A stretch of DNA of 64,000 nt from Octopus sinensis (Eukaryota), in NCBI RefSeq assembly GCF_006345805.1, contig NC_043002.1, positions 115,568,001 through 115,632,000 of the forward strand, written 5' to 3'. Each line of letters begins with the position of its first letter. Positions within the stretch are counted from its first letter, which is position 1. The position numbers and the translations under genes were made by a program. Shown here in pieces: positions 7,880-41,797 of this stretch. Under the pieces are notes generated by a model, which saw only the letters and a list, made by a program, of their open reading frames with translations, had not been told where the DNA came from and made no database searches.

Positions 7880-8200
7880 GTGATCAGAAACTGTCCTTTG
7901 GAATAAACTAATATTTTTAAATAACCTGACATTAAAATTCATGTAGCAGCAACAACTAAACACTTTTTAACAAACCCATCTTCAATGTATGGGTTGCTTA
8001 CACACTTCATAGCTTTTGTTATGGATGTATTTTTGTTAATTTGTCTCTTGAAAATAATTTGCTGATTCTTTTAAATGTGCTACTAATTTGTCTAAAAGCA
8101 GAATCAGTCCTTCAGTTTCCCTACAATTGGACAAATGGTAAGGTTTACATTTGTACTTTTCGTTAACTTCAACCAAATCATTCCATTTAATTCTATAAAG
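7880..8200 (-). pseudogene. hAT-Charlie (GTF2IRD2-like) transposase remnant
   Basis: Minus strand PYIEDGFVKKCLVVAAT resembles the KPF.DGEFVK.C motif. Confidence 0.4.
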
Positions 8201-9297
8201 AATTAATCATCTGCCCATTTTTCATTCGACAAATGGATTATTGCCAGCAGCTCTTCTTGCTCGTTATTTACAACATTCATTTAATATCCTTATCAAACAT
8301 ACAGATGAACTGCTAATTATCAATTATATGTAATAAAAGTATGCTAATATATTTTCTGTTCCCACATATTCCTACTTAGCATGTTGAAAGCAACTCATTA
8401 TTAAACTAGAGTTTTGGCCTTAAGCCTTAAACTGCATTTTGTTTTCATATGGGTTTTTATTACAATTTCATCCACTGACTCTTTCAGATTTTGAATTGCA
8501 AAATAGGTATTTAGTCCAGCAGAGACAAAACCAGAACCTGATCAACAGAATATATTGCTTGTTGTTATTTTAGCATCTCAATCAGATATTTTTTTCCAGG
8601 CGGTTATTTATTGCAACACACTATTTCAGTGTACATGGTATGTCTGGAATAAAAATTGTTGTAAGTATAACTAGACAGAGAAAATAATTAGCATAGACAA
8701 GGAACAAACAACTTGTAAAGTTAATAGCTAATGTAAGGAGCAACATTTTGTAATAGCACCAAATCAAACAGACTTGAAAGACATGACTGCTTACAAATGT
8801 TCTGCAGCCTAAAATGTCAACAGTAAATAAGTCCCCTTTGTTCATAATTGTTATATGTCACCATCATCAAAAGGTTAAGAAATTATTGGAGCACTGGAGA
8901 TTTTAAATCGAAAGAAAATAAAGGGATTGGATGACAGCAATAAAGTGGAATATTAATACTGAATTTCTTTTTTTATTTTGTATTAACTTTACTACAGTAT
9001 TTTTTGGTTTTAAATATCACTGTGAAGTAAGTATATATGTAAATGAAATACAATATGAAAAACTGTAAGATATTGTTACTAAAACTTCAGCTTTCAAATT
9101 GCCGTTGGTCTGACTCCTTTTTAATGGAAAACTCCCTCTCTAGCTTTCATAAATTAGTATGCATATTTGAGTGTGTGCCTGCCTAGGCCTGTCTCTCAGT
9201 GCATATGTACTGCAGAATCAATTTATGTGAAATCTTGCTGTCCTTCATATCGTTACATATTGATGCAGACATAAAACTGTTGATGATATATTTCAGA

Positions 9298-9760
9298 CTC
9301 TCTCTCACTCTCTCTCTCTCTCTCTCAACTCTTCTCACTCTCTCTCTCTCTCTCTCTCAACTCTTCTCACTCACTCTTTCTCTCTCGACTCTTCTCTCTC
9401 TCCCTCTCTCTCTCTCAACTCTTCTCACTCTCTCTCTCTCTCTCAACTCTTCTCACTCACTCTTTCTCTCTCGACTCTTCTCACTCTCTCTCTCTCTCAA
9501 CTCTTCTCACTCACTCTTTCTCTCTCAACTCTTCTCACTGACTCTTTCTCTCTCGACTCTTCTCACTCACTCTCTCTCTCTCAACTCTTCTCACTCACTC
9601 TTTCTCTCTCGACTCTTCTCACTCTCTCTCTCTCTCTCTCTCAACTCCTCTCACTAACTCTTTCTCTCTCTCTTTCAACGTATCTTACTCACCTCACTCT
9701 CAACCTCTTTCTCTCTCACCTCACTCAACCCCTTCTTCCTTCCTCTCCCTCACTCTCTCT
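9298..9760 (+). repeat. complex (CT)n minisatellite
   Basis: About 25-30 nt units of ctctctctctc(a/g)actcttctcact. This is the source of the spurious 152-aa L/S ORF. Confidence 0.95.
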
Positions 9761-10024
9761 CCACTAAGAACCTTTATCTAATATCATTTGTTTAGAAATG
9801 AGGGTTTCTAGTTTCAATCCCACTGAGTCCTATGTACATATCCAAAAATAAAGACATGATGATGATGATGATGATCAACCTGAACTGAGTGGAGTATAAA
9901 AGATGATATCAAAAACATTTATCGTCTCTAAAAATGACAATAACACTTCAAAAAATATATTAGAAATCACTTTTCTTAGTTATTTTGACAGGAATTTTTA
10001 ATGTTCACAGATATTTATCATTCC

Positions 10025-10385
10025 ACGTCTTCGTTTAATGTCCACTTTCCATGCTAGCATGGGTTGGACGATTTGACTGAGGAAACCAGATGGCTGCACC
10101 AGACTCCAATCTGATCTGGCAGAGTTTCTACAGCTGGATGCCCTTCCTAATGCCAACCAATCCGAGAGTGTAGTGGGTGCTTTTTACATGCCACTGGCAC
10201 AAGGGCCAGTCAAGCGGTACTGGCAACGGCCAGTCTCAAATGGTGCTTTTTATGTGCCACCTGCACAGGAGCCAGTCTAGCGGCACTGGCATGACCTCGC
10301 TCGAATGTTTTTTCACGTGCCACCAGCACAAGTGCTAGTAAGGCGATGCAGGTAGCAATCAAGCTCGAATGGTGTTTTTAACGTT
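10025..10385 (-). mobile_element. RTE family 1 3'UTR fragment
   Basis: Conserved terminus plus four ggtgctttttac(a/g)tgccac-type modules. Confidence 0.8.
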
Positions 10386-10642
10386 GATAACTCTTTTTCA
10401 ATATTCAGATGACTTCAAATAAGGTTCCACATAAGGTATAAATATATACAACCTTTGAGGATTACAGTATACAAATTCTAATCACCCATTGATGAATGAA
10501 AGCTTTCTTCTTTCTGATTGTTCAATGGTGAATATAAGATGACATAATGCTATGTTTTTAAATCGGTATAATATTTTTGTTTGTTAACTTCACTCAGAGC
10601 TATTGTAAAGTTCAGTCTGGGTTGCTCAATAAAGTTGAAGAC

Positions 10643-10863
10643 AGGTGCAGGTGTGGCTGTGTGGTAAGAAGCTTGTTTCCCAACTACATGGTTCTGGGTT
10701 CAGTCCCTCTGCATGACACCTTGGGTAAGAGTCTTCTACTATAGCTTCAGGCCAACCAATACCTTGTGGGTGAATTTGAAGCCTGTGTGTTGTGTGTGTC
10801 TGTGTTTGTCCCCTACCACCACCTGACAACTGGTGTTGGTGTGTTTGTGTTCCTATAACTTGG
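10643..10863 (+). mobile_element. SINE family A, 3'-truncated
   Basis: ggtgcaggtgtggctgtgtggtaagaagcttg head. Confidence 0.85.
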
Positions 10864-11591
10864 CAAATTTAAACGAGTAGTACCATGTTGTCAAAGCCAG
10901 ATTAAGAGATTAAGCACTCAAGAGATTTTTGTTCCCCCACATATATATGTAATTCAAAATATAGACAATAATAAACCATAAAATAAATTTTTATCTTTCA
11001 AAATGAAATAAAACTAACAGTGAGATGGAAAATAATGTTTATTTTTGCAAACTTCTATTTTATTTATATTTGTAAAGTTTTCTCCTACTTTTTTAATTGC
11101 AAAGTATTTGATCAGATCCTCAAAATTAATCTTACATGACATTTCTCCTTCTATACTTAGTAGAGATAAGGCAACCTCAATATTATTTTAGCAAGTGATT
11201 TCTTTTGTGCCATAAACCATTTACCATTACTGTGGTGCCCCACTTCCCTTGATGCCCGAAGCATGTGCTCATTTTGCTTAATGGTTAATCCAGCACTGCA
11301 TGTTGTCTTGTCATGTCCTTTTGCAAGATCATCAAATAAAAGTAGATTAGAATGAAAAGTTTGTTTCTGACAAATATGACATAACATTATTTTCTCATAT
11401 CAAAAAAATATTTATTCTCATTAATATCACTCACAGGAAAAGTGATAAGTACAGCTACAGAAAATATCCAGTCAGTATGACTCAGTAAAGATAAACACAT
11501 ATACATTAGGTCTATACATATACGTATACATTAGGTACATGCATACATGTCCTTATTTGTGTATATTTTGGTTGCCATCTCCAACTGAGTA

Positions 11592-12030
11592 TACTCTTTA
11601 CTCTTTATTTTACTCTTTTACTTGTTTCAGTCATTTGACTGCGGCCATGCTGTAGCACCGCCTTTATAGTTGAGCAAATCAACCCTAGAGTTTATTCTTT
11701 GTAAGCCTAGTACTTATTCTATCAATCTCTTTTGCTGAACCACTAAGTTACGGGGGACATAAACATGCCAGCATCGGTTGTCAAGCGATGCTGGGGGGAC
11801 AAACACAGACACACAAACAAATACACACACATACATACACACACACACATATATATATATATACATATACGACGGGCTTCTTCCAGTTTCCGTCTACCAA
11901 ATCCACTCATAAGGCTTTGGTTGGCCTAAGGCTATAGTAGAAGACACTTGGCCAAGGTGCCACGCAGTGGGACTGAACCCAAGACCATGTGGTTAGTAAG
12001 CAAGCTACTTACCACAGCCACTCCTGCGCC
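11592..12030 (-). mobile_element. SINE family A, full length
   Basis: Minus strand: ggcgcaggagtggctgtggtaag head, internal (TA/TG)n, and aagtaaaagagt tail. Confidence 0.9.
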
Positions 12031-12059
12031 TATATAAAAAAAAATAAGGGTTGAGAATC

Positions 12060-12560
12060 AAAGATATTTATTACAAAATAACAGAAATTTCTACAATGTT
12101 CCATATCAGTCATCGGCAAACGTCAGACTGTGGCACTTTCTGCATGATACACCAAATGGAAATTTGCCTTGTAATTCCTTTTAGTAGTGAGCCTTACCCG
12201 ATGACGACCCACATCTTATTTTGCCTACTTTTCAAAGATGGCTTCCCATTTCTGTTCTGAATGGTTTTTGGTGCATAAATCCAGCAGACAATGGCAATTT
12301 GGTGTGTTCAGCTACCTGCTCATCAAGCTGCAAAGGGCAAACTATCAAAGTGTCAGCCATTCTCCAAGAGATTTATGGTTGAGCCTGTGGCAGTGAAGAC
12401 CTCCAAACTATATCCTTGCTCACTGCTATCAGGGTGGAGATGGCTATCTGCAAGTGTGAGCCCTGTGAGTCAGGGTGGTTGTTCCAGCACATCTCCTTGA
12501 CCATCTAACAGAACAACACCTTTTCCATTTTGTCTGCTGGTGTCATGAGGCAGTTTGACA
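12060..12560 (-). pseudogene. possible decayed piggyBac transposase C-terminus
   Basis: Frameshifted pieces QTKWK/KVLF..M..MCWNN and LDEQVAEH loosely resemble PGBD4; weak. Confidence 0.25.
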
Positions 12561-13041
12561 AGCCTTTTTAGATATTTCTCTGCTGAGAGGACAAGGAATT
12601 GTGGATTTCATCACATTTCAAAATTTTATAGCTTGGTATTGAGAAGAATCATTCTATTATTAAAATGTTGGCAGATATTATACCATATTATGAAAGTGCC
12701 TTATTGACTGAAGTCTGGAATAAACTTGAAGTTTAGTGTCGAGACTATCATTGATGAAAGCAAACCTATGATAAAATACTTAGCACAGCTACTATGAGAC
12801 ATCAATGGCTAGAATAACAATCAAAAAGCATGACTACCTCTTTGCATAGACCAAATATAGAATTGTTGGCCGAAATACCCAATCTACATATAGAGATGTT
12901 TGTGCTTAAATCCTTAGAGAAATGATCTGCTATCAAGGATAAAATATAGATATTTTGCTTTCAACTTAATTCCATTTGTTTGCTTGAAATCTGTAATGTT
13001 GTAGGTAAAGGAAACCCCAAGTTCAGATGCTCTAAAGATAA

Positions 13042-13403
13042 AGTAGCTTGCTTACGAACCTCATGGTTCCAGGTTCAGTCCCACTGCGTGGCACCTTGGG
13101 CAAGTGTCTTCTACTATAGCCTTGGGCCAACCAAAGCCTTGTGAATGGATTTGGTAGATGGAAACTGAAAGAAGCCCATCGTATATATATGTATATGTTT
13201 GTGTGTGTGTGTTTGTCCCCCCAACATCGCTTGACAACCAATGCTGGTGTGTTTACGTCCCCGTAACTTAGCAGTTTAGAAAAAGAGACCGTTAGAATAA
13301 GTACTAGGCTTACAAAGAATAAGTCCTGGGGTCAATTTGCTCGACTAAAGGTGGTGCTCCAGCATGGCCACAGTTAAATGACTGAAACAAGTAAAAGAGT
13401 AAA
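13042..13403 (+). mobile_element. SINE family A, slightly 5'-truncated
   Basis: Close match to the other family A copies. Confidence 0.9.
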
Positions 13404-14179
13404 TCTTAAATCATTTAAGCTATGCTGACAGATCTGAATGTTTGAAGAAGAAATACAGCTGTTCAATAAAAACATTAACCACACTGATATCACTGGTGTC
13501 AGGAAGCCTTCAGGGTCTCTGGGCCGAGTTTCTTCTTCCAAACTAACTGAAATAAATAAAGAAATCAAAGAAATTTTCAGAATATTTAAGATTTGTCTGA
13601 TTCTAAAACATTTTCTTTCCTTCTAATGAAACACCACCTGTGAATAAGAATATAATATTATTACCAGATAACATGCTCTATCAAATTGGTTTAACTTCTA
13701 GACTGACTGATGGGGATTTAAGCATGTATATATGTTAATTGTGGTCAATTTCAATGTGAAAAATACTCCTATTAATATAAAACTGTGATTATATGTTCCA
13801 GTTGTTCCACCTGACTGTGCTCAAAATAAAGATATGAGGACCATAGCTGTAACAAACACTCAAACATCTCATTCAACCAACTGTCATCGTGTCGTGTGTT
13901 TGCAAAACAACAGTTGGCTTCAACTTTGTTTTCAAAACAAAATTTAAAGGCCCAATGTTTAAAGCATCTAATTATGAAAGCAGTGACTATTAGAAATTTA
14001 TTTCAGTTGGTTGTTATTATTGTATAGCAACAGGTGTGCACTAGACCTAGTAGATATGAACCAAAATTGGTTGTTGCAAATACACAACACCTCCATCTGA
14101 CTAAGGACTACCCTGCACATTCTGACATATAGTAGTTAATCTTGTGGGTTGCAGTATCACATTCTGAACATTCTCTACC

Positions 14180-15900
14180 ATCTAGTCTATTTCTGGTTTT
14201 GTTTAGCTCCAGGTCAGCTAAAGAGGTTATTAATGCTGTGGCTGATATTTTTTGAGTGTATGTTCTGGTGTTGTAGATATCTGCTTATTTGGGGGTAATT
14301 GCATATGTAGTGGCAAGGACTGTGAGAGTTAAAGATTGCTGTAGCAACAAATGTCTGCTGTTTTGTGTTGTCTCATTTAAGGCTTTTGTAAGGTTTGAAA
14401 ATTGCAATGAATATTCTTCATGTTTTCAGTTTCTGGGAAATCAGCAGTTTTGATGTAGTAATAATAATAATAATAATAATCGTTTAATGTCCGTTTTCCA
14501 TGCTAGCATGGCTTGGACGGTTCGACTGGGGTCTGGGAAGCCAGGAGGCTGCACTAGGCTCCAGTCTGATCTGGCAGTGTTTCTACAGCTGGATGCCCTT
14601 CCTAACACCAACCACTCCATGAGTGTAGTGGATGCTTTTTACATGCCAGGGAAGGCTGGCAGCGGTCACGATAGGTTGGTGCTTTTTACATGCTACTGGC
14701 ACAGAAGCCAGTCAAGGTGGCGCTGGCATCGGCCACATTCGGATGGTGCTTTATACGTGCCACCGGCACAGGTATCACAACTACAGTTTACATTTGATTT
14801 TGATTTTGATGGTGATGTACTTGACTCAATAGGTCTCCCCAAGCACAGCAGGTCGCCCAACAATCCAAGGTAAGCACAGCAGGCTGTCCTGCAATCCAAG
14901 GTACTTTGGATGGGCTGGGGCTGCTATGTGAAGCTGGTGCAGGAAACAGCCATGAACTCACGTTATTTGTCGGGTCTTTGCAGTCACAGCATATCTCCAG
15001 AGATCTCGGTCTTTCGTCATTACCTCTGTGAGGCCCAACGTTCAAAGGTCATGCTTGACCACCTCATCCCATGTCTTCCTGGGTCTACCTCTACCCCGGA
15101 TTCCTTCAACTGTTTGGGAGTGGCACTTCTCACATCTCTCCTCATCCATCCGTAGTACATGACCATACCAATGCAAGCGTCTCTCTTGCACACCACATCC
15201 AATGTTTCTTATGTCCAGCATTTCTCTCAGGGCGTTACACTTTGTCATGTGTGCACACTGACATTACACATCCAGTGGATCATGCTAGCTTCATTTCTTT
15301 CAAGCCTACGCATGTCCTCTGTCATCACAGCCCATGTTTCACTACCATGTAGCATGGCAATGTTTTAAGTATATATTAATAATTTTGTCACTTAAGACTT
15401 TTCCGTATTTTAATTTCCTTTAGCTTTTCTGATATCTGATCAAAGGAAGATGTGAAGTTATTGTTTAAGAAGAAAGTTTATATCATGTATTTAGTGTTAG
15501 TCTTTTTCATGCAGTTTTTATAGATAATTTGCTAAGTGAATTTGCTTGTTCTTAAACAATGGGTACTTGTGATTGTTGTTATTACAGGTGTAGGTGTGAT
15601 GTGACCATTGTTGGAATTATTAAATATTTTGTGTAATGTTTTACTGCTTCTTTTGGATGTTAGAAATAAATGTTGGCCACTTTTTCTGACTTTCTTTTAT
15701 TCATTTTTTTAATATTATTTTCTTGTTTATTTACTTTATGCTAAATTTTATTTCTTCTGTTTGTAGTTTTAATCTTGTCTCTTGTTTTATCAGATTGTCT
15801 ATTTGTGTAATTGGGTTGTATTCTTTTATGTTGCCTTAAATGCTATGTATGTTCTTAATGGGGAATGGATATGTGCGTGACTTTTCTCATTAATAATTAA
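14180..15900 (-). pseudogene. old Penelope-like remnant interrupted by an RTE insertion
   Basis: Minus-strand pieces PLFKNKQI..FFLNNNFTSSF and ALNETTQNSRH resemble the PLE linker and endonuclease end. Confidence 0.35.
14460..15357 (-). mobile_element. 5'-truncated RTE LINE (family 1): ORF2 C-terminus, 3'UTR and (TTA)n tail
   Basis: ERRLHWYGHVLRMDEERCEK...GRGRPRKTWDEVVKHDL. Confidence 0.9.
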
Positions 15901-15902
15901 TA

Positions 15903-16482
15903 GGCTTAGGCATGGCTGTGTGGTAAAAAGCTTGTTTCTCAACTACATGGTTCCAAGATCAGTCTCACTGCATGGTACCTTGGGCAAGTGTCTTTTACAA
16001 TATCCCCAGCCCAGCTAAAACTTTGAGTGAATTTTGTAGGCAAAAACTGAAAGAAACCCTTCATATGTTTATGTAGTGTGTGTGTATATCATTCATTAAC
16101 AGTTGTGTAGGAGTGGCTGTTTGGTAAGTAGCTTGCTTATGAACCACATGGTTCTGAGTTCAGTCCCACTGCGTGGCACCTTGAGCAAGTGTCTTCTAAT
16201 ATAGCCTTGGGCTAACCAAAACCTTGTGAGTGGATTTGGTAGACGGAAACTGAAAGAAACCCATCGTGTGTGTGTGTGTGTTTGCGTGTCTGTGTTTGTC
16301 CCCCCAACATCGCTTGACAACTGATGCTGGTGTGTTTACATCCTTGTAACTTAGCGGTTCAGCAAAAGACACTGATAGAATAAGTACTAGGCTTACAAAG
16401 AATAAGGTTGATTTGCTCGACTAAAGGCGGTGCTCCAGCATAGCCACAGTCAAATGACTGAAACAAGTAAAAGAATAAAAGA
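15903..16482 (+). mobile_element. two tandem SINE family A copies (partial 15903-16085, full 16105-16482)
   Basis: Family A head, core and tail. Confidence 0.9.
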
Positions 16483-17412
16483 GTTGAATAACTGACTTTG
16501 ATAAATTGCAAAGTTTTCATGTTTTCATATTTGTTATGATTGTAGTTATAGCCAATGGCCTACTGGTTACAGTGTTGGGACTTGGATCTTAAGGTTGTGG
16601 GTTTGGTTCCTGGACTGGGCAACATATTATTCTCCTGAGCAAAGCATTTTATTTTCTGTTGTTTCAATCCAGTTAGTCATGAGTCCCAGCCTATTGCTGA
16701 TGCACCTCTTTCCTTCCAGCTGTCACATCCACAATGGTCTGCAGTGTTAAAGGTGAGAGAGAGAGAGAGAGAGAGAATGTCTATGTCTGCTTGCTACTAC
16801 ATATATACCTAAGACATTTATTAGAGAAATCAAGGTAAAAGCTACCAGTTTATGCTGTCTTGTGCGTGACAGCTAAGCTTTTTGTAGATAGTGAATTGGT
16901 AGAAACAACAACAGAGAGTTAGGCAATAGACCTAGCAGCATTTAGTGACAGGTCTTTACATTCTGATTTAAATTGTGCCAAGGTCAACTTTGCCTTTCAG
17001 CCTTTTGGACTTGATAAAATAAAGTACTGCCCAAGTACTATGGTCAATATGATCAGCTAAAATCATCCTCTCAAATTTGTTAGCCCTGAGCATAAAATAG
17101 AATTAGTTCATAATTAAGGAGACCCATAACCAAAAGTATCTCAGATGTGACCATCCTGTTACTTTGTGTTTCTGGAAATTTATTATGCAATATATTCTTT
17201 CATTTTTAAGACAACAGGATGCTATTTGAGAGAAATTTGGCTGTTATTTCTAGCTTAAAAACTAACCATATAGAGATACTTTATTGGCTCATTTTTATGT
17301 TGTTGTTTTTTAAATTCTGAAATTGAAAGAATCAATCACTTAAATAGTTAAACTTGCGTTCCTAACTTGTAGGTCTATGGATTACAGGGGTCAATGGATT
17401 TTGTTGAAAAGG

Positions 17413-17770
17413 AGGTGCAGGTTGAGTGGTTAAGTTTGCTTCCCAATTACATAGTTTTAGGTTCGATCCCACTGCATGACACCTTAGTCAGTTGTCTTCT
17501 ACTATAGCCCCAGGCCAACCAAAAGTTTGTGAGTGGATCTGGTAAATGAAAACCAAAAGAAGCCCATTGTGTGTGTGACTGTGTGTGTATGTTTGTGTTT
17601 CTTTGTTTTGATATTGCATGATAGTTGTAAATGATAGTCACTGTCATACAAGCAACGCCATTTATTTCCAATTTTCTGCAAGCCATGGGGAAAAAACTAC
17701 CGGGAGGGCATCTGGCCATAGAAAATTTACCTCAGAAAACTATATACAATCCATGCAAGCCATAATGATG
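17413..17770 (+). mobile_element. SINE family A variant with an RTE-1-derived tail
   Basis: Family A head, then gggcatctggccatagaaa...ccatgcaagc...atgatga. A similar variant lies at 32888-33335. Confidence 0.7.
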
Positions 17771-18138
17771 ATCTATCTATCTATTTATTTATCCATTCTA
17801 AATTCAAATTCCACTCAGGTCAACTTTGCCTTTCTTCCTTTCAGGTTCAATAAAATAAGTACCAGTTAAATACTGGGGTCAATGTAATTGACTGAGACCC
17901 TCTCCCAAAATTGCTGGCTTTGTGCCAAAATTTGAAATCAATATTTGTGTAAGTGTGTATATGTATACATCTATTGCCTACGTACATACATTAACTTACA
18001 TCAGTAATTGGTTCCATGACATGCAATTCAACCCCAAAATCAAGAAATTCGTTAAAAAGACTTCCAGCTACTATAAAATTCTAAACTAAACATTTAAATA
18101 AATATATGCAAAGATAAACACAAAGAACCAACAAATAC

Positions 18139-18679
18139 TTAACCCTTTGGCATTTAAACAGGCCATGTCTTCTAGCCCATATATTCTACCTATTTTATGT
18201 TCAAACTTAGCCTACAATGTCATTCTAAAAATAAGCAATCACATCAAAATCTCAAAGATATGGGATACTGCAACTGGCACTCATGCTGGTGGCATGCAAA
18301 AAGCACCTTTTGAGCGTTGGGCCTCACAGACGCAATGGCAAATGACCGAGACCTTTGGCAATATGCTGTGCTTGAGTAGAAGACCCATCAAGCCAAGTGA
18401 AATTGTAGTCATGGCAGATACTCATGTCACACAACTGGCACCCGTGCCAGTGGCACATAAAAGCACTCATTACACTCTTGGAGTGGTTGGTGTTAGGAAG
18501 GGCATCCAGCTGTAGAAACCATGCCAAATCAGACTGGAGTCGGTGCAGCCCTTTAGCTTGCCAGCACTGGTCAAGCAATCCAACCCATGCCAGCAAGAAC
18601 AATGGACATTAAAGGATGATGAGGAATAGAATAAATAAGCATGACTTTTGACTGAGTAATCTGAATGCTAAAAGGTTTA
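18139..18679. mobile_element. piggyBac-type MITE with a nested RTE 3' end (18268-18622 +)
   Basis: Imperfect TIRs ttaaccctttggcatt ... aatgctaaaaggttta, with TTAA at the left end. Confidence 0.65.
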
Positions 18680-18689
18680 GGTAAATGCT

Positions 18690-19140
18690 TGTGTCGTGAG
18701 GATGTTGATGTGTTCTGTCTCCAAATGCAGAAGTCAACAGCACCTCAGGCAGTGAAGATAGCTCTGTAAGTGTTTTGGCACCTTTTCACCTTGACACCAT
18801 CATTACCTGAGATAGGCAACAAAATTTCCACACACCAACACGAGCTTTGTTGAGTCAGGTGTTGCAACTCTGGGCCAGAGTTTGGTTTTACTGCACCACT
18901 CCTCCTCTCTCTTGAACCCTATGTAATGGATTACTTTCTCAGTGGCTTCTAACAGTTTTCTGGCAATGTCTTTTCTCTCCTTCATAGCTAGTCTAGTCCT
19001 CCTAAGTATCAACTGAACTCTGGGTCCTGTAAGTCCTCTAATACCTATCTCTAGAGGAAGGTATATTGCTTCTTATCCACTGTTTTCACAGATTTCAACC
19101 AACTCACTGTATTTCAGGTGCCCTATTCTTTCTCGGCTCA
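18690..19140 (-). pseudogene. HERO-like (R2 superfamily, restriction-like endonuclease) non-LTR retrotransposon 3' fragment
   Basis: KYSELVEICENSG*EAIYLPLEIGIRG...RKLLEATEKVIHYIGFKREEEW matches KY.ELV..C...GW....P.EVG.RG...EAAE.AS.W.W.KR...W. Confidence 0.75.
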
Positions 19141-19499
19141 AACTTGGAGTTTTCATTTCTAGTGTAGGGTTTCAATGTTTCTTATCATTATGCTACAGTT
19201 TTGTAAGCATTAGAAAACTATTACAGAGGTTAAGAACATTGAAACTAAGTGGCAGAAATCAATGAATAGAGGTCAGAGGAGAAACTGAATGAATGATCAG
19301 CAAGCACACTATAAAGCCACCACCACTTGCATGACTTATAGTTTCTGATTTTAGAATACCATTAATGGAACTTCACTTTGCTTCAAACATTTGGATCAAA
19401 CCTTCTGTTCCCTATTTTTGTAAATGGTTTCAAGTAGACATTGACCTATAGACATTAGTCACATCAGTCACTTCAACCAAAAATCATAGGTACTGACCC

Positions 19500-19878
19500 T
19501 TATCTTTTATGTGTTTCAGGCATTAGATTGCAACCATGTTGGGGGACTACTTTGAGGAATTTTAGTCAAACGAATCAACCCCAGTACTTACTTTTTGTAA
19601 AACCTGGTACTTATTCTGTTGGTCTCTTTTACAAAACTGCTAAGTTACAGGGATGTAAACATACCATCACCAGTTGTCAGCCACAAAGACACACACACAC
19701 ACAGATATATATATATATATACACACATACACACGATGTCTACCAAATCCACTCACAAGGCTTTGGTCATCCTGAGACTATAGTAGAAGACACTTGCCCA
19801 AGGTGCCATGCAGTGGGACTGAACCTGGAACCATGTGATTAGGTAGCAAACGTCTTACCACACAGCCATGCCTGCACC
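19500..19878 (-). mobile_element. SINE family A, older copy
   Basis: Family A sequence. Confidence 0.85.
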
Positions 19879-20479
19879 TAACTTATATATAAAAAAAAAT
19901 GTTTAACTTCTAAAATGGAACAAAGAATCAAAATTGAAGCATCGGTCACTTAGTTTTAAATAGGGATCTAAAGCTATACTAACATGGCTGCAAGTAAGAG
20001 CAGTAATATTTGATGAAGGTTTTATTATCTAGCCGTGCTAAGCTCAATGCTCTTGTAAGCATATCAATTGATGAGGAATGGATTGCACCAGGTCAATCTG
20101 TCCTGAAAAACCAAGCTTTTAATTAGGGATCTATATCTATTTATTGATAATTAAAATCTGTCACTTGGCAAAACATTGTTTAGCAAATTGATTAGGAATT
20201 AAAAATGCTTTTGTTCTTTCCCTTATAAAGAACATTGATAATGTAGATGTATGAGTATACCTTTAAGTATGCTAATTACAGTGCAACAGCTGACCCAGAT
20301 AGAGATAATGAATAAAACAGGGATTGTAAGGTGTATACAACTAAGCTGGCCTAACATACCAACTGCTTCAAATACAAGTCAATGAAGGAGCCTCTACGTT
20401 GTCACTTGAGCAGTTAGAGCTAGCAGCCAAATTCACTCAGATCAATAAAGAATGGTCACATTTGATGTGACCATTTGAT

Positions 20480-20675
20480 TGACATAGATATCATTAAAAA
20501 GGCAAGGTGGTCATGGCTGGAACGTCTTTGAATATAAATGCCCACGAATGTTGACAAACTTTGGTGAATATGTTGATGTGACATAGATATCATTAAAAAG
20601 GCAAGGTGGTCATGGCTGGAACGTCTTTGAATATAAATGCCCACGAATGTTGACAAACTTTGGTGAATATGTTGA
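20480..20675 (+). repeat. perfect tandem duplication, period 99 bp
   Basis: tgacatagatatcattaaaaaggc...ggtgaatatgttga occurs at 20480 and again at 20579. Confidence 0.95.
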
Positions 20676-20969
20676 CTTCTTCGTCCCAGTTTTGGAGGTG
20701 GGCAGCACGTCTATCATTGATATATGATGTAATTTTTAATTATTTTATCCAATGGACATGACTCAGGTTCTACTTCCTCAATAAATATTACATCATAAAT
20801 TCATCTTACTCATTTCCCAATTGCAAATAGCTTGTTATTTCTTCTTTTATGGGTAAAACATTTCCAAGAGTTTGTCAATATAATTCATAAACTGTTTTTA
20901 TCCTTTAGAATTTTTTTTTCTTTTTACCCAAAATAACCTAGTTTTCTAAAGGTTAAGTTGTGTAACAGA

Positions 20970-21785
20970 AAAAAAATCCGTATGACAGTTGTGCGAAAAG
21001 AGGGGAAACTAATTGTTTTATTGTGTTTATCTTTTACTCGTGGTCTCGTCCCCTATGCTATTGGTATGTAACTTTTTTTTTTCAGCTTTGCCTAGATCCT
21101 CTCAGAGAATATATTTGGTTCTCAACAAATATAAGAAAATTTCAGTCAAGCACACGATCATAACAGAAATTAGATATTTAAATTCAGTCATAGTAGGCTT
21201 TTTTTATTTTTCCCATTTTGCCATCCCTCTTATAGATGACCTGGAAAGAATTAACGGCGCAGGTTAGTTGGTTGTTACTGATTCAGTCACTTTCCCCACT
21301 TACTTAAGCACACACGCATACACACCTGTAGCATTGCAGACTGTTGACAAACTAGTCGTCATTCACATACCCGTTACACCCTCAAGGCTTACACATTATT
21401 CAAAACTGCAAAAACTAGCAAGAAATAAAGACAAAAAAGAAATATAAAAGAAAAAATTCGAGAAAACTAGAATCTAATTAAAACCTACGGCTGATGCTAA
21501 AGCGGACTAACAAGTTTGCAGTTTGCCACGTATTTTTACCGGCAACACGACTTTCAGACTTGTCACTTGACGATTTTAAATCCTTTGAATCTCATAATAG
21601 TTAAATATTTACCTTACAGCAGGTATAACAGTCATTTAAAAACTTATTCCCCAGCTCTTATATTAATATAATCTTGACTGAAACTTTTTCCTGGAAATAG
21701 TTAATTTATAAGGAATTCTATTTCCAATTGCTTCGATTCTTCTTCATTTGTTATTACTGGTGTTGTCAACTATTTCAAGTTGAAG
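20970..21785 (+). promoter_or_regulatory. putative promoter / 5'UTR of the orphan gene
   Basis: Repeat-free and CpG-retaining. Three TCAGTC initiator-like motifs (21142, 21184, 21283). Only one ATG (21494) between 21290 and the main start codon. Confidence 0.5.
21236..21262 (+). CDS. candidate 27-nt microexon
   Basis: Long pyrimidine tract ttttcccattttgccatccctcttatag|ATGACC...GCGCAG|gttagt. Reads MTWKELTAQ (phase 0) or DLERINGA (phase 1). Confidence 0.45.
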
Positions 21786-22412
21786 ATGTCTGAATATCGA
21801 CTGTCAGTTAATTTTGAACATAACCCACCACCAGAACCCATCGACAAAGATCGCCTTCAACGGATTAGACAACTGGAACGGCTTCGAGAAAGACGATTCC
21901 ACGATTCCCGGTCTGTAAGAAAGGTGGGTCCAAATGGAAAGTCTAGTTATTTAGATGACTATGGGAGACGATTGGAAAGTGACATGCAAACACTTAAAGA
22001 AATCAAAAAGAGCCGCGAACAGAGAGCAACTTCACCAGTTCCACGAGCATTGTCACCTCTTCCACCACTCTTCGATGTTAGCCCTGATACTTCCCCTAAA
22101 ATTCGACAAAATCTGTTTTTCGGAAATGAAGATTATACAAGGACTCGCATGGAAGAATTGAAGCGAATGAGAGATGAAAACGGACATAGCACCTTTTCAG
22201 CCACGGAAGGACTCAATACGGCTGTTGACAATCTTGAGCAAGTGAATGAGAGACTGAGCGCACTCAGGTTGAAGTCTTCGGCTCTACAGAAAGAAATTCA
22301 AGAAAAACAATCAAACAGCGAAAACAGCATTGAAGAAGAAAACTCTACTGAATCCTTTGCTATTCCAGATATAACAATTACCAACGAAGAAGCGGAGAAT
22401 GCTGAAGAATGA
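21786..22412 (+). CDS. uncharacterised 208-aa intrinsically disordered/coiled-coil protein with a PxIxIT motif
   Basis: Longest non-repeat ORF in the window. ATG context aagATGt. Natural, non-repetitive composition and many CpGs. R/E helix, SP cluster, coiled coil and acidic tail with PDITIT. No TE motifs. Confidence 0.85.
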   Translation: MSEYRLSVNFEHNPPPEPIDKDRLQRIRQLERLRERRFHDSRSVRKVGPNGKSSYLDDYGRRLESDMQTLKEIKKSREQRATSPVPRALSPLPPLFDVSPDTSPKIRQNLFFGNEDYTRTRMEELKRMRDENGHSTFSATEGLNTAVDNLEQVNERLSALRLKSSALQKEIQEKQSNSENSIEEENSTESFAIPDITITNEEAENAEE

Positions 22413-23519
22413 GTTTACAAGTTAATTAGAATGTTAATTGAAGCTGGAAGATTTCTTATCATCGACGGCAAATCTAGTTTTAACTCTGGCATTCACAGAC
22501 GTTTCATCATCAACAATCAACAGGAATGAGATTTGAATTTTCTTATTATTTCGAAAACAAATGTTTATCGTAAGGAATCAAAAGTTCATTGTTTGTCAAG
22601 TTAGTCTTAAAGTGTTATCTTCCAGATTTTAATTTGATGTGTCAAAGGTGAAGGAAGTTGTAATTGACAAAATATCATATATTGATTTGATTTTATACTT
22701 TACGTTATAACAAATATTATTTGGTTAAAACTAGAAATTGTATAAAAAAAAAACCATTCCCATATTGAGGAATATCAAAATATTACTTTTTTGTTGGTTT
22801 CATTAATTTGTTTTTGTTTATTTCGTTAATTTCGTAACGGGATTTTATTACAGTCTTTATAAACGATATAAACCTAAATGTCCAATACTGAAACCGATCC
22901 CTTGCATTTCTTTGTTGTTGCTATAATAATTATAAAGTTGTTATTATCATTTTTCTTTAAAATTGCCAAGATGCTTAATTAGTAACACGTATTACATTTG
23001 AAGTGTTTTGCTATGTTGAGAATTGAAATTATGTACACATGTGTTTGTCTTACCACTTTGCTTAGTTCCTCTTCCAGAAAACCAGAACATTCCTTAATCT
23101 ATTCAAATATCTACAACAAGACTTAGATTACTTTATTTTATTTTCATATACTTTGCTTATGGGAAAATTGTGCTGGTTTCATTTTGTAACCGACTACAGT
23201 TTTGTATGGTACGATATGATCAATACAAGTAAAGGCATTAACTGTTTTTGAACAACAGACAACTTGGAATAGATTTAAACAAACTCTCACAACCATACAT
23301 ACGTGTACAGGTGCGTGTGAGAGAGTGAGGGTATATGTGTTGGTGTATGGATATATGAATGTATATATGTATGTGTGTGTTTGTTTGTGTGTGTGTTAAG
23401 TGCATGTTTGTGTATGTATGTAAATAAAAAGTATGTACATCTGCGTACAAAAGTATACATATTTATATGTACATGCGTGTGAATTTAAATACATATATAT
23501 ATAAGTATACATACATACA

Positions 23520-26189: not shown

Positions 26190-27317
26190 CCTTACTAACA
26201 GCATCCCGGTATAGGACTAGTACAGTTTTTACCAATCACTCATCTATCTCCAGTTTCTGCATTGACCACCAGTTAAGCGATCAGGTGACCCTGTCAAAAG
26301 CTTTCTCCAAGTCAACAAAAGCCAAGCACAGAGGTTTATCTTTGGCTAGGTATTTCTCCTGCAGATCCCTTACCAGAAATATAGCATCAGTGGTGCTTTT
26401 GCTTAGTACAAAACCAAACTGCATCTCATCTTGGTTAACTCTGTCCCTAATTAGTTGGGCTATAACCTTCTCTGTAACTTTCATCACCTGATCCAATAAT
26501 TTGATACCCCTGTAGTTATTTCCATCTAAAGTATCACCTTTTCCCTTGTAGCAGTTGACTATGGTGCTGCTACACTAGTTATTGGGTATGACTGCTTCAT
26601 GAACCACCTGATTTATGATACAGGTAACAAGACCATAACCCACACCACTCGATATTTTAAGCATTTCAGTAGAATTTCAGTAGGATTCCTGATGGGCCTG
26701 GTGCTTTTCCTGTCTTCATATCCTTAATATTATCTACCAGGGTACTGTCAATTCGGGTAGCTGGTCTCTCAGCCAGATCAACCTTTGGCAGACTCTCCTC
26801 CTCCCATTTATTCTCCACCTTCAGCATTCTTTCATAATGGCATCTCCAAGCCTCTCTTTTTGCAGAATCATTAAACGCAAGGGCACCATCATCCATGTGG
26901 ACACATTTCTCTCCTCTGACATCATGGTTTTTTTTCTAACACAGTCTTGCAATCCAAAATACTTCAGTACTTTGGTCCTCATGTCGTTGAACATTGGCAG
27001 ACTTCTTTTCTGCTACTCCCTTCACTATATATACCTGTCTCCTAGCTTCCCTTTTGGCTATCTAATACATTCTCCTGCTACCCCTACTCTTCCAGGCCTT
27101 CCAAGCCTGTTTCTTTGCTCTAATAGCCCTATCTACAGTATTGTTCCACCACCATGTTACCTTAGGTCTAGAAGGGACTTTGCACCAGCCACAGATTTGG
27201 TCTGTGGCACTCAGCAAGCTGTCTTGCAGGAATTCCTAACTGCCTTCTATGATGCCAAAGTTTGGGACAAGTCCTTCCAGGATCTTCTAGATGTATTATA
27301 TGGCATATCTTTCTCGC
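26190..27317 (-). pseudogene. RTE family 1, ORF2 middle fragment
   Basis: KTGKAPGPSGI...DQVMKVTEKV...QFGFVLSKSTTDAIFLVRDLQEKY...FVDLEKAFDRV. Confidence 0.9.
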
Positions 27318-28110
27318 CTACACTCTAAGGAATAGTCTTAATCTCTTGAGTCTTTTCCAGTAGCTTAAATGCTGCACAGAGGCTATCTTCTTCGTGTAGC
27401 TTCGTTGGATTGCCTCAAGTTCTGTGATCAACTTGACACTGGTTGGTGACCATAGCTGAGAGCAATAGTCAAAGTGGCTTAGGACAAGTGTCCTCCAGAG
27501 GACCATCATAGTTTCCTAGTCTCTTGTTCTAAAAGTTCTAGGAATCCATCTGGTGAGCTACCTGCATTTCATTGCCAATTTAGCAACATGCACATGGAAG
27601 GATGCATCATTACTCATGTAAATGCCCAGGTCTCGTACTGACTGTGCCTCTGGGATTGCAGTCCCTCCTGGTCCAGTGTATTTAATGAGTATTGCATTTC
27701 GTTTTGCATGCTGATAGCACAAGGCTTGAAACTTTGTAGGGTTAAACTGCATGCTATTCTTTTCAGCCCGCCTGTAAAGTTGAGATATATCACTTCCACA
27801 TTTGAGTGGTTGAGCAGCTGTTTCAGCACCCAGTCAAAGTTTTTTAGGAGCTGAGTCAAGCAGCTTCTTCCTGGTCGGAAACCATGTTGGGTGTCAGACA
27901 GCAAGTCATTTTCTTCAAGGAAGGTGTTTAGTTTTCTTCTGACTATTCATTCCATGATCTTGCTGATGTGCAATGTCAGAGAGATAGGTTTGTAGTTTCT
28001 TGGCCTCCTTCTCTGCTACCTCTTTGATGAATAGGACATATTTTACCCTCCTTCAGTTTTCTTGGAAGTTGCAAGGAAGCTCTGAAAGAGGGACTGCAGT
28101 GTCTTGTATT
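27318..28110 (-). pseudogene. second CR1-clade LINE RT remnant
   Basis: LSDTQHGFRPGRSCLTQLL...SVRDLGIYMSND...LSHFDYCSQLWSP...SYWKRLKRL. The RT core is deleted. Confidence 0.9.
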
Positions 28111-36644: not shown

Positions 36645-38993
36645 TATGTACACAGTAGCATTGTAATTAGCTGCTATAAGGGTAAAGATGATGCCTTAGA
36701 TAGAAACAACTACAGAGGTATTAAACTATTAGACCAAGTCATGAGAGTTACTGAGAGGGTTAGAGTCTTTAAGGAAGTTAGGAAGTAGAGGAATGGCTTA
36801 TTAGAGCTGTCCAAGCCATGTACAGTTGTGCTGTCAGTAACATGAGAGTCGGCCATGAATACAGTGATGAATTTAGCATTCAGATGGAGGTTCACCAGGG
36901 CTCAGTTCTCAATATAATTATTCATTATAGTCCTCCAGGCCATGACAGAGGAATTCAAAAATAGGTGCCCTTGGGAACTACTATATGCTGATGACCTAGC
37001 CCTTATTGCAGAAGCTTTAGCAATATTGGAGAAGAAATTTCAGGTATGGAAACAAAGCCTGGAATCAAAGAGCCTCAAAAAGTTAACCTAGCTAAGACAA
37101 AAGTGGTTGTTAGGAAGAAAGAAGATAAAACTCTCTTTCTGTCAGGTCAATGACCTTGGTCCATATGTAGGAAAGGAGTTGGAAGAAATTCCATTCGCTG
37201 CACCCTGTGTAAACTATGGACACATAAGAGGTGCAGTGGAATCACAGGTAGATTAACAGATAAAGTAGTCTTTGTATGTGGCAGATGCACAGGAACAATA
37301 AGCACTAAGAGCACACAGGAATTAGATTCTCCCAAATGCCCAGGAGGCTCTCTTGAGGCTGTAGGTAGTTTCTGTTACCTAGGTGACCAAATTAGCAATG
37401 GTGGAAGATGCTCCGAAAGTATTGCCTCTAGAATAGGAATTGGGTGGAGGAAGTTCGGAGAGCTATTACCTCTTTCAGCAACAAAAGGCCTCTCACTCAG
37501 AATGAAAGGTAGACAATATGATGCTTGTGTACAAACAGCTATACTCTATGGTAGTGAGACATGGGCTCTGAATACTGAAGACATGTGTAGACGGGAGAGA
37601 AACGAAGGTAGTATGCTCTGTTGGATGTGCAACATCAGTGCACATGTACAACAAAGTACAAATGTATTGAGAGAAAAGCTGGGCATAAGAGGAATCAAAT
37701 GTAGTATGCAAGAGAGAAGACTACGTTGGTTTGGATATGTGATGAGTATGAATGAGGACAGCTGCATAAAGAAGTGCTGATCACTGAAAGTGGATGGCAC
37801 CCATGAAGGAGGGAGACCCAGGAGGATGTGGAATGAAGTGTTAAGGACTGATCTCAGGAAGTTGGACTTCACAGAGGAAATGACCATGGACCGAGATGTC
37901 TGGCGATATGAAGTTCTTGAGAAGACTTGCCCACATCAGTGAAACTGGGTTCTAGAAGCATCGTGTGTCCCACCCACAAGAGAACTTCTCACACACTCTA
38001 CCACAACGAACCAAACTACATCCCTTCTCTTCCTAACACTTCCAATTCGTGTACTATGATTACCTCCCACTCCTCAGTCTTTTCCTCTTGACCTGGTACC
38101 ACTGTATCATTGTCATCTGCTAGCCTCTGACATGTAACAAGAACACTTTTCTACCTCCCTACCCCAACAATCCAATCTACATCTCTTTCTTGCATCATTA
38201 TGCCTAGCTCTCACTCCCCAATCCTGTCCTTTGTATCATTGCTATCCAGTAGCCTCTCCAACTCTATATATGCCCAGGTCTTTCACCACTTACTTGCACT
38301 CTTTAATCACACTCCCTTCATGATATCCTATCACTTATATTATGGCATTTGAACTTCAAGAGTATGCCCTGGCACTTGCCACCATCTCTATCTCTCTCTT
38401 CCTTTACTCAACCATCTCATTTATACTCTGATCCCCACTCCTTGTGAGTATGTCCAGCATTTTACCACCGTCTCCATCCTGTGGTCTCCCACTCTCTCTC
38501 TCTCTCCCCCTCTCTCTCTCACTTTACTCAGGCTGGGCAACTATGTATTTTCTTTGCAGTAGCACACCTGTTTCTGTCTTCATTTCTGATCTTTCTCTCT
38601 CAGGCCAGGTAACCTTGTACTTCCTCTACAGTAAGACACCTTTATCTGTCTCACCCCCACCTCTTAAAAGTTTTTGTCTTGCAATTGCTTGGTGACCCTG
38701 TCAGTGCAGGTGCCACTTAAAAGCACCCAGTCCACACTGTAAAGGGATTGGTGTTTGGAAGGGCATCCAGCTGTAAAAACCTTGCCAAAACTGCCCTTGC
38801 CTGTGCTTGTGCCACGTAAAAAACACTAAGTCCACTCTGCAGAGTGGTTGGTGTGAGGAAGGGCATCCAGCTGTAAGAATCTTGCTAAAACAGTCACAGA
38901 AGTCTGGTGCAGGCTTCGGCCTGGCTGGCACTTGTGGGGTCGTCCCACCCATGCTAGCATGGAACACAGATGTTAAATGACGATGATGATGAT
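36645..38993 (+). mobile_element. decayed RTE LINE (family 1): RT domain, long 3'UTR and (GAT)n tail
   Basis: DRNNYRGIKLLDQVM...VHQGSVL...LLYADDLAL (YADD at 36984-36995)...FCYLGD...ILYGSETW...ERRLRWFG. Stops and frameshifts present. Confidence 0.92.
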
Positions 38994-40248: not shown

Positions 40249-40852
40249 AATGATACAGTGGTACCAGGTCAAGAGGAAAAGACTGAGGAGTGGGAGGTAA
40301 TCATAGTACACGAATTGGAAGTGTTAGGAAGAGAAGGGATGTAGTTTGGTTCGTTGTGGTAGAGTGTGTGAGAAGTTCTCTTGTGGGTGGGACACACAAT
40401 GCTTCTACAACTCAGTTTCACTGATGTGGGCAGGTCTTCTCAAGAACTTCATATCGCCAGACATCTCGGTCCATGGTCATTTCCTCTGTGAAGTCCAACT
40501 TCCTGAGATCAGTCCTTAACACTTCATCCCACATCCTCCTGGGTCTCCCTCTTCCATGGGTACCATCCACTTTCAGTGATCAGCACTTCTTTATGCAGCT
40601 GTCCTCATTCATACTCATCACATATCCAAACCAACGTAGTCTTCTCTCTTGCATACTACATTTGATTCCTCTTATGCCCAGCTTTTCTCTCAATACATTT
40701 GTACTTTGTTGTACATGTGCACTGATGTTGCACATCCAACAGAGCATACTACCTTCGTTTCTCTCCCGTCTACACATGTCTTCAGTATTCAGAGCCCATG
40801 TCTCAATACCATAGAGTATAGCTGTTTGTACACAAGCATCATATTGTCTACC
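40249..40852 (-). repeat. inverted duplicate of ~37508-38112 (RTE ORF2 end plus 3'UTR part)
   Basis: Reverse-complement match over ~600 bp, with roughly 9 substitutions by eye. Confidence 0.95.
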
Positions 40853-41797
40853 TTTTTTTTTTTTACCATTCTTGGTATTTTCTGCTTTTTCATTTATATT
40901 TTGTCCCTGAAAAATAATAATAATTCCTCCCCCACTTTTCTCTTTTTTTAATGCGTAATACAATCTTAAATTTGTTCAGCTTTCTTGAACAATAATAAAC
41001 GGTTTCTCCTTCACGTTTACATAAATCTCTTAGGAAAGGAGAAAAGAAGGGAAGGAACTCTGTAAAAGTTAAGATTTTTTCCTGATATTTGCTTACGAAA
41101 CCGAATTCACTATTTTTGCTATTACCCCCTCTTCCACTATCTTCTGAACTACGATTATAGACCAGTCTTCAAGGATAGAGTTCATTGTTTTGCAAAGTTA
41201 TTCCCCTTCATATTGATAACTACGAATTTAATGCAAGTACTCCAGTAGTCGGGGATCAGGAACTATAAGCACAAGTAGGCACTCCACTTGCTAAAAGTAG
41301 CAAAATACACCTTCCCATGAAAAAAAGTATATACTTTGGATAATGTAATCGGAGATAAGCTATGTCTAAGAAATATAGGATAGTTATTATCTAGAATGCT
41401 TTTAATCATAGGTCCCCCACCCACCACATGACAGGAGTTAAACAACAACCAATATACACTTCAACTATTTTGATTTGCAAAAATTCTAGTTTTGAAATGA
41501 TTCTAGTTAGATTTGTAATCACCACTACACATATGATCAACGAAAATCTTTATTGACAAATATTTTATATTTTTAAATACTAAACACTGAGTAGAAAGCA
41601 ATATTTAATGACCTTTATATTGTACAAGGCTGATATTTTTCATGGCTAAAAGCTATGTCTGAAAATAGATATTTACGCTACCCACGGGTGCTTCGGGGAA
41701 AAAATAAGTTTGCAAAACCCAGATAGGATGTTGACAAATGTCCTCCTAAAATTGGAGCAACATGCATGCTAATTTGTGGACGTGCATAAATTACAAT

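Follow-up and report, generated by a model that had tools for sequence, protein, structure and literature searches.

A single-copy octopus gene for a predicted calcineurin-docking protein and its giant paralog-like neighbor

The Locus and Its Transcript

The window (the whole stretch of 64,000 nucleotides of Octopus sinensis DNA analyzed here) carries on its forward strand an open reading frame (ORF), at 21786-22412, that a sequence-only reading had proposed to encode 208 amino acids, and translation confirms it. We refer to the protein as P0001. The features discussed below are these, with amino acid positions those of P0001:

21158..22669, plus strand: 1512-nt unspliced contig of run X10 (probable RNA; the contig itself does not give strand or ends), with 1 other letter, 0 gaps and a depth of 13.4
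21786..22412, plus strand: one coding exon of 208 codons and a TGA stop, supported by translation, one genome match and an upstream in-frame TAA
21798..21815, plus strand: RLSVNF, aa 5-10, a proposed PP1 motif, rejected here; not conserved in the alignment
21843..22010, plus strand: module of two predicted helices, aa 20-75, in which R..L...RERR and D.Y..R...D...I are invariant; common to P0008
22044..22076, plus strand: R-x-[LI]-S-P-L-P-P-L-F-D, aa 87-97, with R87 and S90-D97 invariant; candidate DYRK-type RxxSP phosphosite at S90
22122..22136, plus strand: G-N-E-x-Y, aa 113-117, an invariant cap ahead of the third helix (from the alignment)
22212..22313, plus strand: predicted coiled-coil helix, aa 143-176 (AlphaFold2), with a weak colinear counterpart in the giant ORF
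22365..22382, plus strand: PDITIT, aa 194-199, which matches the PxIxIT consensus for docking on calcineurin; the tail around it is acidic and modeled with low confidence
L004:1900-8352 (G000:C6:115633900-115640352), plus strand: P0008, a 2150-aa ORF in a 2175-codon frame, 44 kb 3' of the small gene and just past the window end

Of the 59 stop-to-stop frames in the window that reach 90 aa, the longest, with 235 codons, holds the small ORF, and the GC content of the ORF stands out (42% vs 34% upstream and 28% downstream). P0001 finds one match in the 2.72-Gb genome, that is, the gene is single copy, and the 1.8 kb of DNA around the ORF is matched in full once, with a further match of 55 nt in its 3' flank. 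An in-frame TAA lies at 21702-21704 with no in-frame ATG ahead of the start at 21786, and a start Met falls in the same region in all five aligned sequences. The first AATAAA downstream of the stop is at 23423 (stretch 22413-23423), which would make the 3' UTR about 1 kb long unless a variant signal is used. The stretch 21786-22412 is a real, conserved, single-copy gene that very probably stands alone. Elsewhere in the window, a near-perfect 99-nt tandem duplication occupies 20475-20675, 1.1 kb 5' of the ORF, and broken LINE-like reverse-transcriptase fragments were recognized by eye at 26281-27946, 37154-37780 and 40580-40975.

Sequencing runs were compared over positions 8000-23300. The contig that spans the ORF comes from run X10, which holds 77 million letters and whose RNA status is a guess. 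Two unique control bins had a depth of 0-0.07 in all four runs, and for three of the four the mid-ORF bin showed neither depth nor a contig, a gap that proves nothing by itself. With no contig there from these three, the exon structure rests on one run. Among the matches listed, 20 of 24 runs, from 9 studies, contain at least 50% of the words of the region, and none of them is recorded as RNA. The sequence-only reading would fall if the ORF were silent; with one probable-RNA unspliced contig across it, the 208-aa gene is probably transcribed.

That reading would also fall if the ORF were the last exon of a well-known protein. The form of this idea that we weighed is an alternative last exon of a plus-strand gene lying upstream of the window. 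Exon-like stretches do exist there at L008:3543-3743 (ending in phase 0) and L008:6758-7964 (ending in phase 1), an exon scan did not find the next exon of that gene, and there are two weak AG sites in phase 0, at 21779 and 21785, from which the frame stays open to the ATG. Against this, the X10 contig runs unspliced across both AG sites, the nearest upstream donor is in phase 1 and does not fit, and all relatives share the start Met and similar lengths. Fused forms were found neither among candidates of 110-2000 aa, a weak test, nor among 1.84 billion representative proteins. The upstream in-frame TAA, the lack of an earlier ATG, the unspliced contig and the shared start Met together make a last exon very unlikely.

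The upstream gene has a further exon-like stretch at L009:795-892, and this and the two in L008 have clear AG/GT borders and compatible phases. The first is short, the second is coiled-coil with a weak HR1-like match (E 0.029), and the third is a 1.2-kb low-complexity stretch with a phase-1 end. Joining that end to a phase-1 site of the giant ORF would be in frame, and the 208-aa gene would then be intronic. We rejected the upstream gene as the main TOCA locus, as the HR1 match is weak, five better loci lie elsewhere and no SH3-like exon was found. On the minus strand, some 75-77 kb before position 1 of the window, lie two large S/T/P-rich exon-like frames from another gene.

Relatives and the Giant Neighbor

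Relatives of P0001 fall into two sequence groups. From 281 candidates came P0002, unnamed and 79% identical, and P0003, the Argonauta hians hypothetical protein Ahia01_001114100 (GAB1608299.1), annotated by NCBI at 203 aa and 67% identical over its full length. P0003 is a gene prediction without name or function and on its sequence a likely ortholog of P0001. From 8000 candidates came P0004 and P0005, also unnamed and 39-40% identical; P0006 and P0007 belong to the cluster of P0005, and P0005-P0007 are 247 aa long and found on 12, 130 and 6 short contigs. A HMMER search of the 1.84 billion representatives returned two matches, P0002 and P0004, both already known. We infer that the group at about 40% identity comes from squid or cuttlefish. 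If that placement is right, the split of octopods from squid and cuttlefish about 275 million years ago (PMC9068888) applies to the comparison. Conservation rests on few independent lineages, because only two deep groups, about 40% identical to each other, are sampled.

No known family emerged from the searches, and the sequence-only reading had not recognized one either. The best Pfam E value was 0.088 for P0001, with nothing better than 0.012 for five members; PDB sequences gave at best 0.064 and 0.85, and Foldseek had no match at E ≤0.001. VIA-align reached at best Z 7.4 at an rmsd of 19, on generic helical hairpins, which is not proof of a new fold. The ESM Atlas held no usable match for P0001 and scores of ≤0.78 for the N-terminus of the giant ORF, and none of 598 pattern matches in JGI metagenomes was confirmed. 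The P0001 family, seen here only in cephalopod-like sequences, fits none of the families searched in Pfam, the PDB or the Atlas. The label "orphan" holds in that no named family claims the protein, but it was overstated, because ortholog-like relatives exist and a paralog lies 44 kb away. Our literature searches found no paper joining calcineurin, PxIxIT and cephalopod, and nothing relevant by title on related terms or the Argonauta locus tag. Arrays of squid genes without known function are in Supplementary Table 4 of PMC9068888, and these might include the present family.

The giant ORF was discovered as the second genome match to a P0005 query (E 0.012). It is a single frame of low complexity, rich in S, T and E; it has eight tandem repeats of 25 aa, and nothing in Pfam matches it over cut-off. 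Several comparisons connect it to P0001. In reciprocal genome searches the 65-residue modules of the two are each other's best other match (E 0.009 and 0.018), hhalign aligns module and giant ORF at a probability of 96% (50 columns, 40% identity), and with the A2 profile P0008 scores 26.3 bits, whereas none of the local shuffles that were scored (296 of 300) exceeded 6.8. A second, weak block of P0008 corresponds to the coiled coil, with the order of the two blocks preserved, and a single-sequence model places helices at both blocks with low confidence. Judging from these alignments, P0008 is a paralog that shares the helical module of aa 20-75.

The 344 kb around the gene held no third member of the module, and we rejected two weak matches elsewhere in the genome, one in a LINE-like frame (E 1.36) and the other with a stop (E 5.05). 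The module search recovered four known proteins among 7985 scored candidates of ≤2000 aa, a limit because of which giant orthologs of similar length could not appear. A module tree on five of six rows had no supported branch. P0008 has no strict PxIxIT, and its five loose matches are no clear excess over the 3.2 expected. An acceptor-like site in phase 1 was seen in the giant ORF at L004:1990.

Predicted Architecture

The sequence-only reading had called the protein disordered, which is overstated because the AlphaFold2 model built from a five-sequence alignment gives four helices (21-43, 58-82, 115-131 and 139-179) that cover 106 of 208 residues (pTM 0.27). What stands of that claim are the unstructured N-terminus, hinge and tail, where confidence is low (aa 1-13, 96-109 and 181-208). 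On this model P0001 would consist of helices strung together by flexible linkers and be neither a folded domain nor wholly disordered. Charge is unevenly spread, with +9 net over aa 21-82, the basic two-helix region, and -10 over aa 180-208, in keeping with the acidic tail described earlier. The heptad coiled coil also reported there was borne out: starting at aa 143, the a/d positions read L,L,L,S,I / A,V,L,L,K. A homodimer prediction in which the alignment was unused scored 0.00 and is no evidence either way.

A Conserved PxIxIT Motif

The motif PDITIT lies where the sequence-only reading had placed it. Its strict form P.I.IT arises in 0.12% of 100,000 shuffles of P0001. The relaxed PP1 pattern arises in 12.5% of shuffles and four or more [ST]P sites in 13%, and so PxIxIT is the only one of these features that exceeds chance. 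All seven sequences keep P-x-I-x-[IV]-T, 9-10 residues from the C-terminus, in the forms PDITIT, PDITVT, PDITIT, PEIKIT and, three times, PEIKVT. Shuffling the last 40 residues of each sequence yields the motif in 0.08-0.5% of cases, the seven being related sequences and not independent draws. Over aa 175-208 in five aligned sequences, 4 of 34 columns are invariant, namely P194, I196, T199 and E208, and in Argonauta P0003 all six motif residues are kept vs 3 of 19 in the preceding linker. The anchors are fixed and the x positions vary (D/E, T/K), as expected of a linear motif. The PxIxIT is selectively retained in a variable tail. The sequence-only reading had proposed to check whether PDITIT and SVNF are islands of conservation; PDITIT is more conserved than its flanks, but SVNF is not conserved.

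The setting of the motif matches in part what is described for calcineurin docking, with flanks that point both ways. The region of aa 181-208 has no predicted secondary structure and a block pLDDT of 36-46, that is, predicted disorder, and the loose consensus P[^PG][FILV][^PG][FILV][^PG] of 10.1101/632547 is found in 7/7 sequences. According to the same source, that consensus has 21,791 matches in the human proteome, most of them expected non-binders, and position-specific scoring plus disorder are the main filters, with conservation helping modestly. The sequence-only reading held that acidic flanks favor binding. In PMC6728138, D/E at position 9 raises binding slightly, which agrees, but acid at -1 lowers it strongly; since acid there would hurt binding, acidic flanks are not generally favorable. 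Across the family, position 9 carries E, D or G and is acidic in six of seven. The -1 residue is Ile, described as favorable in PMC6728138, in P0001-P0003 (3/7) and either A or T in the remaining four. According to the same paper, binding is enhanced by R/K at position 2, a position that is acidic in 7/7. A pattern for the docking strand of calcineurin A (NIR) has one genomic match, with NIR intact, in an exon with 39 of 40 aligned residues identical to calcineurin A and with solved calcineurin A chains matching at E ~1e-25. With the motif kept in 7/7 sequences while its flanks vary, the assignment to calcineurin stands as a prediction of binding.

Two observations concern similar stretches. 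PLFD[VI]S at 22065-22082 (aa 94-99) is a second loose PxIxIT-like match in 4/7 sequences and overlaps the invariant SPLPPLFD. In P0005 and P0007 the tail is partly duplicated, and some 20 residues ahead of the PxIxIT stands a second I-x-I-T copy that lacks the proline.

The four SP sites reported earlier were found at S83, S90, S99 and S103, and S90 is the only one of them that is invariant. It stands in RxxSP in 7/7 sequences, a form that DYRK kinases prefer (PMC5831797).

A link from calcineurin to PP1, in the manner of Inhibitor-1 and DARPP-32, had been suggested on the strength of LSVNF. P0001 resembles those two proteins in being small, acidic-tailed and partly disordered. They carry a threonine pseudosubstrate site, after basic residues, that PKA phosphorylates. 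P0001 lacks such a site; PKA-type sites ([RK][RK]x[ST] or RRx(1-2)TP) occur in none of the seven sequences, and none of the five members scanned (5/5) matches the DARPP-32/Inhibitor-1 Pfam family at E ≤1. Both proteins are described as phospho-dependent PP1 inhibitors (PMC6406801), and the RVxF consensus [K/R]x(0-1)[V/I]x[F/W] given in that source is found in 0/7 sequences. What speaks for the bridge is the relaxed form LSVNF (aa 6-10), present in P0001 and P0002 (2/7); it reads LSINY in Argonauta and is lost in distant relatives, and its pattern is the one that one shuffle in eight produces by chance. PP1 probably plays no part, and a calcineurin-PP1 bridge, which conservation appears largely to refute, is scarcely credible.

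Proposed Mechanism and Alternatives

We favor, with moderate confidence, the reading that P0001 is a lineage-restricted calcineurin-docking phosphoprotein, that is, a substrate, or an adaptor. The flexible acidic tail would add a β-strand to the PxIxIT site of calcineurin A through PDITIT. A proline-directed kinase of the DYRK type would phosphorylate S90 in the invariant RxxSPLPPLFD hinge, and calcineurin, activated by calcium and docked on the tail, would remove the phosphate. Through the coiled coil and the basic two-helix module, P0001 and hence calcineurin may be tied to a partner or site. P0001 would then be regulated by calcium and calcineurin.

Two alternatives accept the conservation of the tail and give it another meaning. 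P0001 could be a competitive inhibitor or a pure anchor of calcineurin, with a real PxIxIT and with SPLPPLFD binding some other domain. The second docking motif, L.[ILV]P, is found in 0/7 sequences, the eight invariant residues in a row from S90 to D97 exceed the needs of a kinase site, and PxIxIT peptides alone inhibit NFAT signaling (PMC6728138), all of which fit this view. The invariant R at -3 and S-P match the DYRK consensus, which argues against it, and the acidic position 2 suggests a moderate affinity less suited to an inhibitor; we regard an inhibitor or anchor as doubtful. Alternatively, the tail could be a β-strand ligand of a different protein and its likeness to PxIxIT coincidental. 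Small heat-shock proteins, for instance, have a groove for I-x-I/V, and I-x-[IV]-T ahead of an acidic C-terminus resembles the tails that fill it. Consensus matches often fail to bind calcineurin (10.1101/632547). Against this, both the Thr and the Pro that precedes the first Ile by two residues are invariant, which completes the four PxIxIT anchors; we judge such a ligand unlikely.

Read as a calcineurin-docking protein, P0001 can be compared with known systems. Like the NFAT and AKAP79 clients, it has the full consensus in a disordered stretch with Ser-Pro sites nearby, and P0001-P0003 share their hydrophobic -1 residue. It differs from them in having no homology that we found, no LxVP, a motif at the extreme C-terminus, and an unclassified helical module and coiled coil. 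Members of the RCAN/calcipressin group have an RRM-like domain, and we rejected membership there, as the AlphaFold2 model has no β strand and there is no such Pfam match. Calcimembrin (C16orf74) binds via the composite motif LDVPDIIIT with D at position 2 (PMC12612047). It too is small, with the same spacing as F-A-I-P-D-I-T-I-T and the same D at position 2, and a large hydrophobic -3 residue like its own occurs in 6/7 sequences. In the three closest sequences F or M replaces the calcimembrin Leu, so that L.[ILV]P is absent. In contrast to calcimembrin as described in that source, the P0001 family has neither the myristoylation site Gly2 (residue 2 is S or E in the five sequences that were complete) nor the phosphorylated Thr at position 9, and P0001 is about half helical, with no homology found. 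P0001 would work like a PxIxIT client and, by these comparisons, appears to fall outside the Inhibitor-1/DARPP-32, calcimembrin and RCAN families.

If the predicted binding is true, the gene would add a calcineurin client from a family seen here only in cephalopod-like sequences. PxIxIT motifs are reported to evolve fast in fungi (10.1101/632547); this one is kept across groups about 40% identical, and so it would mark an important calcium-regulated node. Lineage-restricted genes without known function are expected in coleoids (PMC9068888), and since PxIxIT docking is also well known, the surprise is moderate. The helical module common to P0001 and its giant tandem paralog, still unclassified, offers a second handle on the system. 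A speculative scenario, to which we attach little probability, is that the small gene and P0008 arose by local duplication of a new, cephalopod-born two-helix and coiled-coil module. The small copy would have gained its PxIxIT de novo and would either bring calcineurin to the complex of the giant scaffold or compete with that scaffold for a partner, phospho-S90 being the switch. The giant protein also has at its aa 26-31 an FxxIxE stretch that we take to resemble a PP2A-B56 docking motif.
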